Sequence record: PZ583741.1 | Strand: one strand, 5' to 3' | DNA length: 64,000 nucleotides | Source of the DNA: a phage | Translations under genes and position numbers: made by a program | Notes under the pieces: generated by a model | The model's input: the letters and a program-made list of their open reading frames with translations, nothing else | The model's database searches: none | Told to the model about the DNA's origin: nothing | Part shown: one piece after another, positions 15,757 to 22,561 of the stretch | Layout of the letters: every line of letters begins with the position of its first letter | Numbering within the stretch: the first letter of the stretch is position 1

Positions 15757-15966
15757 ATGATGAGCGTTTATTTTTATTGCGGTCACATTGAGCGACAAGG
15801 AAGCGTAGCGAGCGTTGGTAGTTTCTGCGGATTATCAATTGGACCTGATGCTGTTAGCGCATATGAAGATGTCATGAGAGCGCAGGTGAAGGAAATCCAG
15901 TCAATCACTGAGAGCGGCGCTTTTAATCTTTCTGTTATTTTTGATAAATTCGAAAAGGTGGAGTGA
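15757..15966 (+). CDS. hypothetical small protein
   Basis: 69 aa ORF overlapping next start. Confidence 0.35.
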   Translation: MMSVYFYCGHIERQGSVASVGSFCGLSIGPDAVSAYEDVMRAQVKEIQSITESGAFNLSVIFDKFEKVE

Positions 15967-16442
15967 TGATTGATTGGGTATCTTTATTTGATTATGATGG
16001 AGCGTCTTTGGTGTGGAAGCATGGAAGGGGAGGTGTTTCCGTTGGCAGCATTGCGGGAACGGTTAATGCTGGCGGGTACATTCAGCTCAAAGTTAACGGA
16101 AGATTTTATTATGCCCACAGAATTATATGGGAAATGCATAACGGTCCTATACCGGAAGGTATGGAGATTGACCACATAAATCATAACAAGGCGGACAACA
16201 GGATTGAGAATTTGCGTCTTGTTCGACACAAAACTAACACTAAAAACGCGCCTAAATACAAAAATAACACCAGCGGCGTTACTGGTGTGAGTTGGTATAA
16301 GAGAGATAAAAAATGGCTAGCACAAATAATGGTTGATGGCAATTACATACGTCTTGGTCTTTTTGATAATTTCGAAGCAGCAGTCGACGTGAGAAAGGAA
16401 GCAGAACTAAGGTATGGATTTCACAAGAACCACGGCGCTTGA
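15963..16442 (+). CDS. HNH homing endonuclease with AP2-like domain
   Basis: 159 aa; HRIIWEMHNGPIPEGMEIDHINHNKADNRIENLRLV, near-identical block in B ORF 22049..22561. Confidence 0.75.
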   Translation: MMIDWVSLFDYDGASLVWKHGRGGVSVGSIAGTVNAGGYIQLKVNGRFYYAHRIIWEMHNGPIPEGMEIDHINHNKADNRIENLRLVRHKTNTKNAPKYKNNTSGVTGVSWYKRDKKWLAQIMVDGNYIRLGLFDNFEAAVDVRKEAELRYGFHKNHGA

Positions 16443-16479
16443 TGATATAATGACCCTTGCAGAAATGTGAGGGTTTTTT

Positions 16480-17709
16480 ATGAGCGACAAAATCGCAGTA
16501 TTGAATGCGTACATCAAGGATAGAGTATCTAACAACAATAGAATGATTCAGCAACAGCGCATATGCCACGCCGGGAAAAATTTAGATCAGAAGCGCGCTT
16601 TTATGTGGAGGGAGATGGGATACCCACAAGAAATTAACGCTGAGGATTTCAGATTTGCATATGAGCGTTACCCACTGGCAAACGCCGCAGTAAATATCGT
16701 TCTTAACAAGTCGTGGCATGGTATGCCTACAGTGCTTGAGGATGGCGCTGATGATGAAGCCACTTCCCCATGGGAAAAGAGCGTCAATGACATTCTGAAG
16801 AAGGCGCTACCATTCATCAAGGATGCAGATAAGCGGAATCTGATTAACCGATACTCTGCGCTAATACTGCAAATCCGTGATGGGCGCAAGTGGAGTGAGC
16901 CTGTAGACATCACAAAAACCCGCCGAATTAAAGATAAATCCATCGTTCGCTTTATTCCGGTGTGGGAAGAGCAACTCCGTGTCAGCGCATGGAATAACGA
17001 CGAAACCAGCGAAGACTACGGAATGCCTGAGATGTACGAATATCAGGAAAGCGCCGTAGAGGATTTCGACAGCGACGGAAAACCTGAGCGTTCCGTGCAG
17101 ATTCACCCAGACCGCATCATCATTCTGGCTGAGGGTAGCTTTGACGGCAGCATGTTCAGTGGCGTTCCATTGCTACGCGCTGGTTTTAACTCATTAATAG
17201 ATTGTGCCAAGGTGTCCGGAAGTTCTGCTGAGGGGTTACTCAAAAACTCATCTCGCCAGCTTAATGTTTCGTTCAATAAAGATAATGTTTCAGCGCAATC
17301 ACTGGCACAGCAGATGCAAGTTCCAGTGGATGATTTGGCAGACCTGTTGAACGAAAACATCGAAATGCTCAACTCAGGCATTGATGCAGCAATGTTCAGC
17401 TTTGGCAGTGATGTTAGCGTTCTTTCAACATCCATGAGCGACCCTGAGCCGTTTATGTATGTTGCTGCCAGTCAGTTCGCGGCATCAGTGAATATCCCGC
17501 TTAACTCATTACTTGGAAGTCGCAGCGGTGTGCTCGCATCGGCCAATGATGAGCAGTCACTGGCAATGATGGCCATGCAACGCAGGGATGGCTGGCTTGA
17601 TTATCTGGTTGGTTCTTTCGTTGAGCGTTTAATTTCGTTTGGCATTGTGGAAAGCATGCCGGAAGCAACCTCAAAAGGTATCGCCGACTTCCTGGCTACA
17701 TGTTACTAA
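16480..17709 (+). CDS. portal-like protein of genome A; last 19 codons are read from genome B sequence
   Basis: 409 aa; blocks align by eye with B portal 24584..25810; the ORF crosses the A/B junction at 17651/17652. Confidence 0.5.
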
Positions 17710-17778
17710 GTTATCTTACAAGGCATCTCGTGGGGTGCCTCAGTAAGACAACCGGAGATAGAGCATGAAAACCAAAAT
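17652..17778. repeat. 127-bp segment exactly repeated at 63874..64000
   Basis: Base-by-base identity read over the whole segment; identity breaks at 17651 versus 63873. Confidence 0.85.
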
Positions 17779-17950
17779 GATTCACAAGTCAGAAGTAAAA
17801 ATTGGCGACACGGTAATTCACTGCGGTGAGATGAAGACGGTTGGCATGGAAACATTTGGCAAGGATGAGTTTATGGGACTCCTACTGTGGGGTGATAGCT
17901 ATCGCTGCGGCTACAAGATGGTTGAGGTTGTAACTGAGGTTAAGTTTTGA
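17765..17950 (+). CDS. hypothetical small protein
   Basis: 61 aa ORF; followed directly by cassette motif. Confidence 0.4.
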   Translation: MKTKMIHKSEVKIGDTVIHCGEMKTVGMETFGKDEFMGLLLWGDSYRCGYKMVEVVTEVKF

Positions 17951-17968
17951 ATAGCACGAATTGCTAAA
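17951..17968 (+). promoter_or_regulatory. B cassette motif ATAGCACGAATTGCTAAA
   Basis: Overlaps upstream stop; TATAGT-like box about 22 nt downstream. Confidence 0.55.
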
Positions 17969-18214
17969 CCTTCCGCAAGGCCGTTTGATATAGTGGTCTT
18001 GTTGAAGCAAAACAATCAATCATGGGGTTACACAAATGCAAGTTTATAAATCACCTGGCGGCGCTCGTTACGTTGTTGTTGATGGCATGGTGTACTGCAA
18101 GCCGCTAACCGGATTCACATTTCGCTCGTCAATGACGGTGGATCGATACCTTTAGTTGATAGGTTGGGGATTTCTTAGGTTTGAAAAGGTAATCAAGCCT
18201 ATAATGACCGTCAA

Positions 18215-18232
18215 ATAGCACGAATTGTTAAA
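18215..18232 (+). promoter_or_regulatory. B cassette motif, variant (atagcacgaattgttaaa)
   Basis: Read directly. Confidence 0.4.
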
Positions 18233-18410
18233 ATGGGATTCATCCTGAATGGTATGATCCACACATCAACCACAAGAATGGAAGTTAAGTGACGATATAC
18301 GAACATAAATTCAGCAGTATGGGTATTGATATGCTCCTGCACTATGTAGACGAAAAATACGCAAATCTCATGCTTAATACGCATGGCGGCACAATAACGA
18401 GGATTGAGAT

Positions 18411-20805: not shown

Positions 20806-21086
20806 GTGAGTTAACAATCTGGTTTATCGCAGGTCTGATTACTTGGGCTTACTTTTTAATCGTTTAGATTGAGCTTGTTAAAAAGAGCTTGCATCACTGA
20901 CAGGAATTATCTAATATTAACCACGTAGACAAACGAGGCCACCAGGTGGCAACGGCGCACGGAGCGCACTACACGGCAAGTCCGTAGCTCATTAAGTAGC
21001 GTATGCGGCATTAAGACCTAGCGCAAATAGGCAGATTAATCGGCTGTATCAGGCAGCCCCGGAGCCGTAACCGGGACTCATTCAAA

Positions 21087-21164
21087 GCTCTGCTAGCTCA
21101 ATTGGACAGAAGCAACGACCTTCTAAGTCGCAGGTTACTGGTTCGAATCCAGTGCGGAGCGCCA
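21087..21164 (+). tRNA. tRNA-Arg (anticodon UCU)
   Basis: Hand-folded cloverleaf: acceptor GCTCTGC/GCGGAGC, T-arm ACTGG-TTCGAAT-CCAGT, anticodon loop CTTCTAA, 3' GCCA. Confidence 0.7.
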
Positions 21165-21179
21165 ATAAAGGAGTTCATT

Positions 21180-21362
21180 ATGTGGGATGTGAAGTTGTCA
21201 ATTCGCTTAATGGGCCGCTCGTGCAAGAATTGCACTCAAGAATACATCGCGTCAGTTGCCGCAATCAGCGCTGAGGATGCGGTAGCGAAAGTAAAGGAGA
21301 TGTCAGGCGCTGACCCTGACACCCACAAATTCCTGGTAGCTTACGTTCGTGAGCAAAAGTAA
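21180..21362 (+). CDS. hypothetical small protein
   Basis: ATG 21180 after aaaggag; track ORF 21102 overlaps the tRNA and is trimmed. Confidence 0.4.
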   Translation: MWDVKLSIRLMGRSCKNCTQEYIASVAAISAEDAVAKVKEMSGADPDTHKFLVAYVREQK

Positions 21363-21406
21363 AAAGTGTTATACCCTCGTTAAGTTTCGTTTCTCTCGTT
21401 GTTTTT

Positions 21407-21431
21407 AGCCCTCGCTTGAGGGCTTTTTTTC
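21407..21431 (+). terminator. rho-independent terminator (agccctc-gcttg-agggct plus T7)
   Basis: Read directly. Confidence 0.7.
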
Positions 21432-21473
21432 GTCTGCAATATGCTATAATCTGGAATCAACAAAGGAGGATTT

Positions 21474-21980
21474 ATGAGCAAAGCAGCATTAAAGATGGGT
21501 GAGGGAAATTTCAAGGCGCTCTACAACAAGAAGTATGGCGACATTGCTATGGTGGCAATCAACCGCAAGTACACGCCTGAGGAAGTTTTCGATTTCGCCG
21601 TTAGATACTTCTCCTGGGCTGAGAGCGAGGCAATTAAGGCTATTGAGACGGCTGCTTTCCAGGGTGTGGTTAGCGAGAGCCTCGTACACAAGCCTAGAGT
21701 ATTCACCTTAACTGGGCTGGCGCTCTTTATGGGTGTCAATATCAATAGATTCGCTCGCTGGCGTACTGAGGCTGGATACTCTGATGTGATGGAATTCATT
21801 GATAACGTTATTTACGAGCAGAAGTACCAGCTTGGTGTCGCAGGCATCATCAACTCTACCATCGTTGGTAAAGAGCTAGGAATTGATAAGCCGCAGGAGA
21901 TTAAGATTAGCAACAACTCCACAGCTAACGATGTTGACAGTATGAAGGAAGCACTTGAGTCCGTGATCAGTAAGCTATAG
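21474..21980 (+). CDS. putative terminase small subunit
   Basis: 168 aa; first gene of packaging operon; positional inference. Confidence 0.4.
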   Translation: MSKAALKMGEGNFKALYNKKYGDIAMVAINRKYTPEEVFDFAVRYFSWAESEAIKAIETAAFQGVVSESLVHKPRVFTLTGLALFMGVNINRFARWRTEAGYSDVMEFIDNVIYEQKYQLGVAGIINSTIVGKELGIDKPQEIKISNNSTANDVDSMKEALESVISKL

Positions 21981-22048
21981 CACTTATTGTTAAAAGAATG
22001 GGCCCAATCAATGAGATAATTGGGTCACTAACTTAACGAGGTGATGAT

Positions 22049-22561
22049 ATGAATTGGCATGATTATTTTGAATACAAAGATGGGAAGATTTACTGGAAAG
22101 ATTACGATAGCGAGAAGCTTGGAAGGAGAAGGATACAGCGAAGATTCATAGGGAAAGAGGTTGGCGGCATTGATAAAAGCCTAGGGTATGTTAGGGTAAA
22201 CATGCCTGGTAAAAAATATTGGGTTCATAGAATAATCTGGGAAATGCATAACGGAGCAATACCAGAAGGTATGCAAATTGACCATATAAATCATGTTAGA
22301 AATGATAACAGGATAGAAAACATTAGGTTAGTTACAATTCAGGAAAATAGAAAGAATCAGTCAATAAATTCTAGGAATAAGACCGGGGTTACCGGAGTCT
22401 GCATAGTATCTAGGACTGGCAAGTATGTAGCTCAAATAAAAAAGGATGGAGAGAATATTCACTTGGGATTCTTTGATAATATTCACGACGCATCGATTGT
22501 CAGGGCGAGGGCTGAATTTATTCTTGGGTATCATAAAAACCACGGGAGGAAAGATGAGTGA
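22049..22561 (+). CDS. HNH homing endonuclease with AP2-like domain
   Basis: 170 aa; HRIIWEMHNGAIPEGMQIDHINH; overlaps the large terminase start. Confidence 0.75.
   Translation: MNWHDYFEYKDGKIYWKDYDSEKLGRRRIQRRFIGKEVGGIDKSLGYVRVNMPGKKYWVHRIIWEMHNGAIPEGMQIDHINHVRNDNRIENIRLVTIQENRKNQSINSRNKTGVTGVCIVSRTGKYVAQIKKDGENIHLGFFDNIHDASIVRARAEFILGYHKNHGRKDE

Follow-up and report, generated by a model that had tools for sequence, protein, structure and literature searches.

What are HNH endonuclease genes doing among the DNA packaging genes of two different phages: do they serve the terminase, or only themselves? The question is raised by sequence record PZ583741.1, of which 64,000 nt of phage DNA (the window, meaning this whole stretch) were analysed. 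The window joins parts of two phage genomes, genome A and genome B. One HNH gene, copy A, lies directly before the portal gene of genome A, and another, copy B, lies between the genes of the small and large terminase subunits (TerS and TerL) of genome B. We conclude that A and B are very probably free-standing homing endonuclease genes that combine an HNH (HNH_3) and an AP2 domain, selfish cassettes lodged in the spacers between packaging genes. An earlier reading of the letters without database searches (the sequence-only reading) had offered two possibilities, a mobile homing endonuclease or a packaging component, and the first of these is supported by the domains and fold of the proteins, their patchy presence among relatives, a 1.67-kb recombination patch around copy B and a linked recoding of the portal gene next to copy A. 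Four HNH genes were found, and a six-frame scan of the window revealed no HNH copies beyond these:

15966-16442, plus strand: HNH-AP2 gene copy A, 158 aa (alternative start GTG 15963), with HNH_3 and a weak AP2 match, phrog_99
22049-22561, plus strand: HNH-AP2 gene copy B, 170 aa, with HNH_3, phrog_99
5124-5645, minus strand: third HNH-AP2 gene, A2, with HNH_3 and an AP2 match above cut-off, its stop overlapping the helicase start by 1 nt
541-1059, minus strand: fourth HNH_3 gene, distinct in its N-terminal domain, flanked by the SSB and Erf recombinase genes

The open reading frames (ORFs) were present where the sequence-only reading had placed them and translated as it had quoted. Pfam detected HNH_3 in copy A (E=4e-23), copy B (E=9e-22), A2 (E=1.5e-15) and the ORF at 541-1059 (E=6e-10), while AP2 was matched above the Pfam cut-off in A2 (37 bits), below it in copy A (25.5 bits) and not at all in copy B or the ORF at 541-1059. 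A, B and A2 all belong to PHROG 99 ('HNH endonuclease'). BLASTP identity was 46% between A and B (E=1e-46), 42% between A and A2 and 34% between B and A2; the gene at 541-1059, which had been called unrelated, is a distant relative in view of its HNH_3 match. The near-identical core that had drawn attention to A and B is real, but it is not a mark special to this pair. Near-identity is limited to about 24 residues of the catalytic core (HRIIWEMHNGxIPEGMxIDHINH; 85.5% at the DNA level over 69 nt), and the DNA of this core is also matched at 73-83% nucleotide identity by HNH genes of Klebsiella, Salmonella and T1-like phages. A homologue is present in about 4,000 of 50,697 phage records, and we regard the core as the catalytic signature of the family rather than a product of exchange between A and B, because it is common to thousands of phage HNH_3 genes. 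A recent exchange between A and B was thus rejected, given that the proteins are 46% identical and that DNA similarity is confined to a 69-nt core common to many unrelated phages. Movement of the gene between these two phages is likewise not borne out, since A is no nearer to B than to most aligned homologues: in a 76-sequence alignment, A shares 47% identity with B, 48-58% with other homologues and 85-96% with its own lineage.

Structural comparison placed the proteins among homing endonucleases. The only PDB sequence match of copy B was the homing endonuclease I-HmuI (1U3E), across the catalytic region, with D78-H79, N91 and N100 of B aligned with D74-H75, N87 and N96 of I-HmuI. The catalytic D69-H70, N82 and N91 of copy A are intact, and the D-H, N and N positions are invariant or nearly so across the 76-sequence alignment. 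An AlphaFold2 model of A, built with the 76 homologues, had a mean pLDDT of 91, and a Foldseek search with it returned as top PDB matches I-HmuI for the N-terminal half, followed by plant AP2/ERF domains for the C-terminal sheet-plus-helix (7WQ5, 7ET5 and 1GCC, which are WRI1, TEM1 and AtERF1; root-mean-square deviation 1.3 Å over 39-50 residues, Foldseek prob 0.99-1.0). The small size of the domains keeps the Foldseek E-values weak (0.008 or worse); the fold assignment relies on which structures rank first and what they are, together with Pfam, not on these E-values alone. A His-Me finger with intact catalytic residues was found in the set of A, B and A2 (by Pfam, alignment and the 1U3E match), and a C-terminal AP2 domain is indicated by Pfam in A2, by the model in A and by alignment in B.

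Proteins that combine HNH and AP2 are known as a homing endonuclease family from phages, cyanobacteria and ciliates (Magnani et al. 2004, as cited in PMC10448857). Like the window genes, members of this family have an N-terminal beta-rich region, HNH_3 and a C-terminal AP2 domain, and they are free-standing and sporadic in phages; no essential difference from the window genes was seen. I-HmuI of Bacillus phage SPO1 is the best PDB match in both sequence and structure, with the D-H...N...N residues aligned, but it is a nicking enzyme encoded within a group I intron, has another C-terminal DNA-binding region and lacks AP2. The four HNH ORFs of the window lie between complete genes, and their flanks are collinear with HNH-less alleles, so they are not intron- or intein-encoded.

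We then compared the surroundings of copy B with those of its relatives, for which the following features are needed:

21474-21980, plus strand: TerS gene of genome B, Pfam GP3_package, annotated as TerS in relatives
21981-22048, plus strand: leader of the HNH cassette, 68 nt, with its own Shine-Dalgarno sequence GAGGTGATGATATG
22554-24125, plus strand: TerL gene of genome B, start corrected, with its ribosome-binding site (RBS) GGGAGGAAAG inside the HNH 3' end
21953-23618, plus strand: recombinant, co-conversion-like patch, 1.67 kb, comprising 30 nt from the end of TerS, the 573-nt cassette and, from the TerL 5' end, about 1,065 nt

Each HNH gene had been described as lying next to a terminase gene, which holds for B, between TerS and TerL, and not for A, which adjoins the portal gene. 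Copy B had also been seen to overlap the TerL start. The overlap exists, although it comprises 8 nt (ATGAGTGA) with TerL starting at ATG 22554; the annotations of BEK2, 2725-N35 and Rtp likewise give 8 nt, and an overlap of 116 nt, from a TerL ORF beginning at 22446, was rejected as an artefact of choosing the longest ORF. The start was set at 22554 because in HNH-less DTL stops and a 19-nt spacer reach as far as a GTG aligned with ATG 22554. The cassette as a whole (21981-22553; 573 nt of leader and HNH gene) stands in place of this 19-nt spacer of HNH-less alleles (CAATAAGAGGGTATAACAA): in the HNH-less phages G8, DTL and CEB_EC3a, TerS is followed by TAA-CAATAAGAGGGTATAAC(AA) and then by TerL. 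The leader is common to BEK2, N35, FP, TR3 and Rtp and missing in G8, DTL and EC3a. A regulatory hairpin in the leader was considered and dropped, since shuffled sequences fold about as well (z=-1.3 to -1.8).

The cassette is far from fixed at this site. Exact HNH-free sites were found in DTL, G8 and EC3a, and 73 records in the phage collection have an empty TerS-TerL junction versus 15 with leader and HNH gene. At least four HNH lineages occupy the site, 43-51% identical where measured; Rtp rtp20 was left out of the identity matrix, and its lineage was placed by a weaker tblastn match. The B-type, TR3-type and Rtp rtp20 genes have in common the leader, an MNWHD start and the 8-nt TerL junction, and UDF157lw carries a fourth lineage with a different leader and junction. 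Proteins 96-99% identical to copy B occur in five phage records only, all at the same TerS-TerL site, and in BEK2 and 2725-N35 copy B is essentially already annotated, as a homing or HNH endonuclease. The alleles of the TerS 3' end and TerL 5' end were tried as a diagnostic of HNH presence at this site and rejected: no difference there tells the groups apart except the TerS stop codon, TAG versus TAA.

Comparison with HNH-less G8 revealed how the cassette may have arrived. Over the compared region, which runs to beyond 26950, genome B matches G8 at about 100% apart from the 1.67-kb patch. To its left, only 2 mismatches were found in 21474-21952; from 21953 to the TerS stop every third base is mismatched; the cassette has no counterpart in G8; the TerL part is 50-74% identical up to about 23450, climbing to 82-89% near the breakpoint at about 23618; and from 23619 to beyond 26950 identity is 98-100%. 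The patch is 94-100% identical to FP/BEK2/DTL-type alleles, and genomes of that type drop to about 85% exactly where G8 climbs to about 100%. Because identity swaps in this way between the G8 and FP/BEK2/DTL types, we interpret genome B at this locus as a G8-like backbone with a 1.67-kb patch from another lineage. Such a patch is the footprint expected of homing with co-conversion, and its position in a backbone about 100% like G8 indicates a recent transfer. The asymmetry of the patch suggests that the break was made within TerL. Inside the patch, TerL codons 9-14 (22580-22595) contain 10 mismatches in 16 nt relative to FP and BEK2 amid 94-100% identity, and they differ in each relative compared (NHAQ, TYAE, THTE, THAE and TIQE); this hypervariable spot just inside TerL might be linked to endonuclease targeting.

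The patch resembles what is known of the free-standing endonucleases of T4-like phages and ICP1 (seg/mob, IPA-HNH and T5orf172), which lie between essential genes, home without introns, co-convert their flanks and mark exchange boundaries (PMC10448857). Those enzymes belong to other protein lineages and hosts, whereas the window phages are Rtp-like and Segz_1/Skate-like siphophages, and the IPA-HNH domains of ICP1 are too divergent for the Pfam HNH_3 model, which the window proteins match strongly. More generally, homing endonuclease genes cluster near terminase and other essential genes, and nuclease genes are found where regions of genetic exchange begin or end (PMC10448857), with which the patch agrees.

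Not every copy at the B site is intact. The B-type copy of BEK2 (L006 576-1088) and BEK3 has IDRINH and NVNRIEN in place of IDHINH and NDNRIEN (H->R and D->V), and the H->R change falls at the residue aligned with the general-base His of I-HmuI. This copy is probably inactive and decaying, as expected in the life cycle of homing endonucleases. Substitutions of this kind in the catalytic motif, together with the deletion of the gene from seszw without loss of viability (see below), could be extended to the view that the window copies too are inactive relics of past invasions and now mere passengers. We consider this highly unlikely, as every residue aligned with I-HmuI D74, H75, N87 and N96 is retained in the window copies, their ORFs are full length, and the patch in a G8-like backbone points to recent transfer.

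At the A locus, the trace that accompanies the gene lies in the portal gene downstream:

15757-15966, plus strand: small upstream ORF, 69 aa, phrog_26739, its stop overlapping the HNH start (TGATG)
16443-16479, plus strand: spacer specific to HNH-bearing genomes, 37 nt, with a TATAAT box and a hairpin at 16452-16475 followed by a T-run, before the portal ATG
16480-16526, plus strand: recoded portal 5' end, 47 nt, first 16 codons, the HNH-linked allele
16480-17651, plus strand: portal gene of genome A, Phage_portal_3 (Pfam), truncated by the contig end; 471 aa in relatives

Copy A likely starts at ATG 15966, because of the TGATG overlap with the upstream stop and because its homologues begin M-N/I-W. 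It lies 38 nt before the portal gene and 911 nt past the TerL end (15054). The small upstream ORF is homologous to positions 4230-4450 of KFSST1 (L005) at 91%. The listed ORF at 16480-17709 is partly an artefact, because the portal gene is cut at 17651 and the frame reads on into genome B.

The spacer TGATATAATGACCCTTRCAGAAATGTGAGGGTTTTTT with the HNH 3' end was common to 8 of the 8 natural HNH-bearing genomes inspected, with one R (A/G) position, and the portal start ATGAGCGACAAAATCGCAGYATTGAATGCRTACATCAAGGATAGAGT was found in 8 of 8 as well; natural HNH-less genomes have another spacer and the portal start ATGTCAAAAATCGACGCTTTAAACGCCTACATACGCGACCGCGTG. The first 16 portal codons are about 58% identical in nucleotide sequence to the alleles of HNH-less genomes, versus more than 90% further downstream, and differ from them by 8 synonymous changes (including AGC/TCA for Ser and AGA/CGC for Arg), 2 conservative replacements and 1 codon indel. 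This recoded allele was present in 9 of 9 HNH-bearing and 0 of 15 HNH-less genomes, for which the Fisher p=8e-7 is overstated because the genomes are not phylogenetically independent. Exact-pattern scans of IMG/VR contributed to this linkage: an HNH gene accompanied the recoded allele in 2 of 2 contigs and, within the available upstream sequence, was missing beside the other allele in 15 of 15. The end of the linked tract is variable, as L012-L014 change to the HNH-less type after codon 16 and the window and Seszw_1 do so later. The recoded portal 5' end is probably a linked, cleavage-immune version of the enzyme's target, for which it is our candidate. A transfer footprint with co-converted flanks was thus found at both loci, as the 1.67-kb patch in B and as the linked portal 5' allele with its variable tract end in A.

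The presence of HNH genes at the A site is also patchy. None precedes the portal gene in Segz_1, KFSST1, PHA46_2 or BS5, and Seszw_1 and LPST49 have a 52%-identical HNH gene at this site. The phage collection holds 127 records with an HNH-free portal junction versus 28 with an HNH junction, and most of the 28 belong to seszw or to laboratory derivatives of it. P0001, a protein 96% identical to copy A, was found on 15 metagenome contigs; in the 8 contigs shown it lies 38 nt before a 471-aa portal gene wherever the downstream gene is visible, and an 85% relative from a metagenome has the same placement; the TerL upstream of the P0001-type HNH gene is a Terminase_3 in some contigs and a Terminase_6 in another. 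All close relatives found (96% and 85%) come from metagenome assemblies, and the best full-length GenBank phage match was 59% among the matches listed, with 16 records in the 60-80% band left out. By its sequence, copy A is a new lineage, otherwise seen only in metagenome contigs. Segz_1 was examined as a clean natural empty site for A and rejected, as its VIP0003-portal interval is a mosaic of differing small ORFs; since this mosaic differs in every relative, A has no clean left insertion boundary. An engineered deletion is available in seszw: the 'mutant Salmonella phage seszw' records are viable clones with genomes reduced by CRISPR (PMC9825161), many of them without exactly the 477-nt A-site HNH gene and with spacer and portal kept. 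These do not count as natural empty sites, and they concern the seszw-type HNH gene, at the same site and junction, rather than copy A itself. Sporadic presence with intact empty sites, as seen at B (73 versus 15) and A (127 versus 28), extends to the two other HNH genes of the window. ST65 lacks both the 541-1059 and the 5124-5645 gene, its SSB gene abutting the recombinase gene and its helicase gene being followed directly by the primase gene, and ASO78B has A2 beside the helicase gene at the same site and is without the 541-1059 gene, with SSB and recombinase genes abutting.

The placement of the genes nevertheless raises the possibility that the HNH proteins are packaging accessory subunits that stimulate terminase cleavage, like HK97 gp74 or the HNH proteins of staphylococcal cos phages. 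B lies between TerS and TerL and would be translationally coupled to TerL, A lies within the packaging module adjoining the portal gene, and further HNH-AP2 genes occur directly upstream of TerL with an overlapping stop/start (TAATCATGGCTAG) in L012 (2281-2805), L014 (621-1145) and KFSST1 (L005; 1369-1872); homing and packaging roles, moreover, need not exclude each other (Barth et al., PMC10448857). The HK97 gp74-type proteins have an HNH motif and a location beside packaging genes in common with the window proteins, but they are small zinc-binding [CxxC]2 proteins that are conserved beside cos and stimulate terminase (PMC3592412; PMC10448857), whereas the window proteins have no CxxC, contain an AP2 domain and are missing in most close relatives. 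All copies examined (window proteins and site-mates) have 0 CxxC motifs and 0-3 Cys, in contrast to the [CxxC]2 of cos-associated HNH proteins (PMC3592412), and Pfam gives HNH_3 only, not a PF01844-type HNH. Neither conservation across all packaging-module relatives nor a need for growth was found: most close relatives with near-identical terminase and portal genes have no HNH gene, the TerS of HNH-less G8 being about 100% identical, and the engineered seszw phages without the A-site HNH gene are viable (PMC9825161). The BEK2 copy, furthermore, has its putative catalytic His substituted. A packaging component is therefore not supported, and we regard a packaging role for these proteins as very improbable.

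Another possibility is that the genes were domesticated or repurposed, either as a weapon that cuts competitors' packaging genes and need not home, or as an AP2-type regulator of the downstream TerL or portal gene. The cassettes provide the RBS and start context of TerL, alter the spacer and hairpin before the portal gene, and retain intact catalytic residues in both window copies, and the co-option of DNA-binding domains of homing endonucleases is documented (PMC10448857). On the other hand, no observation sets domestication apart from ordinary homing, which by itself predicts both the recombination patch and the sporadic distribution, and in most relatives TerL and portal are expressed with no cassette present. 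We consider domestication very unlikely. Consensus promoter and terminator scans of the cassettes gave counts near shuffled expectation and no convincing promoter of their own, and cassette-borne promoters and terminators were therefore rejected. The one notable site, the hairpin and T-run before the portal gene (16452-16475; fold z=-3.7; terminator-like match), is matched by an equivalent hairpin before the portal gene in HNH-less alleles. Judged by their overlapping stop and start codons, A, B and A2 form part of operons, with their translation coupled to that of the adjoining genes.

Several points weigh against the interpretation of A and B as HNH-AP2 homing endonuclease genes, or at least against parts of it. 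The AP2 match of copy A is below the Pfam cut-off, and the C-terminal AP2 domain of copy B is predicted by alignment to A. At the B site, DTL is HNH-less and yet has the 'HNH-type' TerL 5' end, breaking the association on the TerL side, so that the TerS stop (TAG versus TAA) alone splits all HNH-bearing from all HNH-less genomes. At the A site, the significance of the portal linkage is inflated by shared ancestry as described above, and the linkage could simply mean that one ancient block was inherited as a unit, without selection for immunity. The target sites of the A and B enzymes are themselves predicted from these sequence patterns.

Taken together, the results settle the HNH genes, with high probability, as selfish homing endonucleases and not packaging factors, with the TerL start of genome B and the description 'next to terminase' corrected. 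In the mechanism that we propose, in which cleavage, target position and present-day activity are predictions, an HNH-bearing and a related HNH-less phage would infect the same cell, and the enzyme, binding through its AP2 and N-terminal DNA-binding parts, would nick or cut HNH-less DNA close to the empty site. With the HNH-bearing genome as repair template, the cassette would then be copied in together with flanking DNA, and the HNH-bearing genome would itself be protected because the cassette disrupts the site, the adjoining sequence is recoded, or both. The cassettes would be read with the packaging operon and translationally coupled to neighbouring genes. The patch and the recoded portal start are testable illustrations of known biology rather than new biology. 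The patch (window B versus G8) and the recoded 47-nt portal stretch could serve as substrates for studying HNH-AP2 specificity, and the latter predicts the cut location of A-type enzymes. Both also exemplify the way in which homing endonuclease genes mark recombination boundaries, a point relevant to phage taxonomy and the engineering of therapeutic phages.

A bolder proposal, which we put forward tentatively and hold to be somewhat doubtful, is that HNH-AP2 cassettes actively drive the shuffling of packaging modules among enterobacterial siphophages. If this were true, the linked synonymous recoding would be explained by a copy A enzyme that targets the first ~45 nt of the portal gene, and the asymmetric 1.1-kb co-conversion tract by a copy B enzyme that cuts within the first kb of TerL. 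With each homing event, segments of essential genes would be dragged across lineages, as the same HNH and portal block is seen behind two TerL families, and the cassette would entrench itself by providing the RBS and start context of TerL.

The make-up of the window itself was established by a megablast search with positions 12000-26000, in which the matches switch sharply at 17651/17652, where two contigs are joined end to end; the two genomes supposed by the sequence-only reading were thereby confirmed:

1-17651: contig A, Segz_1/Skate-like, the last 17.6 kb of a partial genome, ending inside the portal gene
17652-64000: contig B, Rtp-like Drexlerviridae, complete, about 46.2 kb, circular

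By megablast, the DNA of contig A is about 93% identical to Salmonella phage Segz_1 and Skate-like phages, and the top match of contig B, among Rtp-like Drexlerviridae, is Escherichia phage vB_Ec-G8 at 96%. Positions 17652-17778 are identical to 63874-64000, and because of these identical 127-nt ends contig B is taken as a complete contig that closes on itself. The end identity looks like an assembler overlap or circular closure, and a self-closing contig is compatible with a genome that is permuted or terminally redundant.

Mobile elements abound in the packaging modules of both phages, and genome A has three HNH genes and an intein in TerL within 17.6 kb:

12520-15054, plus strand: TerL gene of genome A, 844 aa with intein
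12793-13881, plus strand: intein with Hint and LAGLIDADG parts (Pfam Hom_end_hint, Hom_end and LAGLIDADG_3), in the TerL P-loop

The intein splits the Walker A P-loop (GGRG|C...HN|SGKT, aligned with intein-less TerL proteins of 474 aa), and this insertion accounts for the 844 aa of the TerL of genome A. The same intein is also present in Segz_1 and missing in Seszw_1, KFSST1 and L012, which have a 474-aa TerL. By Pfam, the TerL proteins of the two genomes belong to different families, Terminase_6C in B and Terminase_3 in A. The HNH-TerL arrangement of KFSST1, L012 and L014 echoes the TerS, HNH and TerL order of genome B in an unrelated terminase family.

Finally, several repeated or structural elements were observed in genome B. 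Copies of an intergenic element (about 50-85 nt, 82-85% identity) lie at 24120-24198 after TerL, at 20163-20245 in the upstream early region of small ORFs and at 36097-36164; the element is also repeated in G8, DTL and other relatives and may be a shared promoter or terminator module. A tRNA-Arg gene (anticodon TCT) lies at 21087-21164, about 300 nt before TerS, as in Rtp-like relatives. The early region contains a direct repeat (19100-19169 versus 19275-19344, 81% identity), and an inverted repeat of 65 nt connects 42627-42691 with 53090-53154 at 88%.

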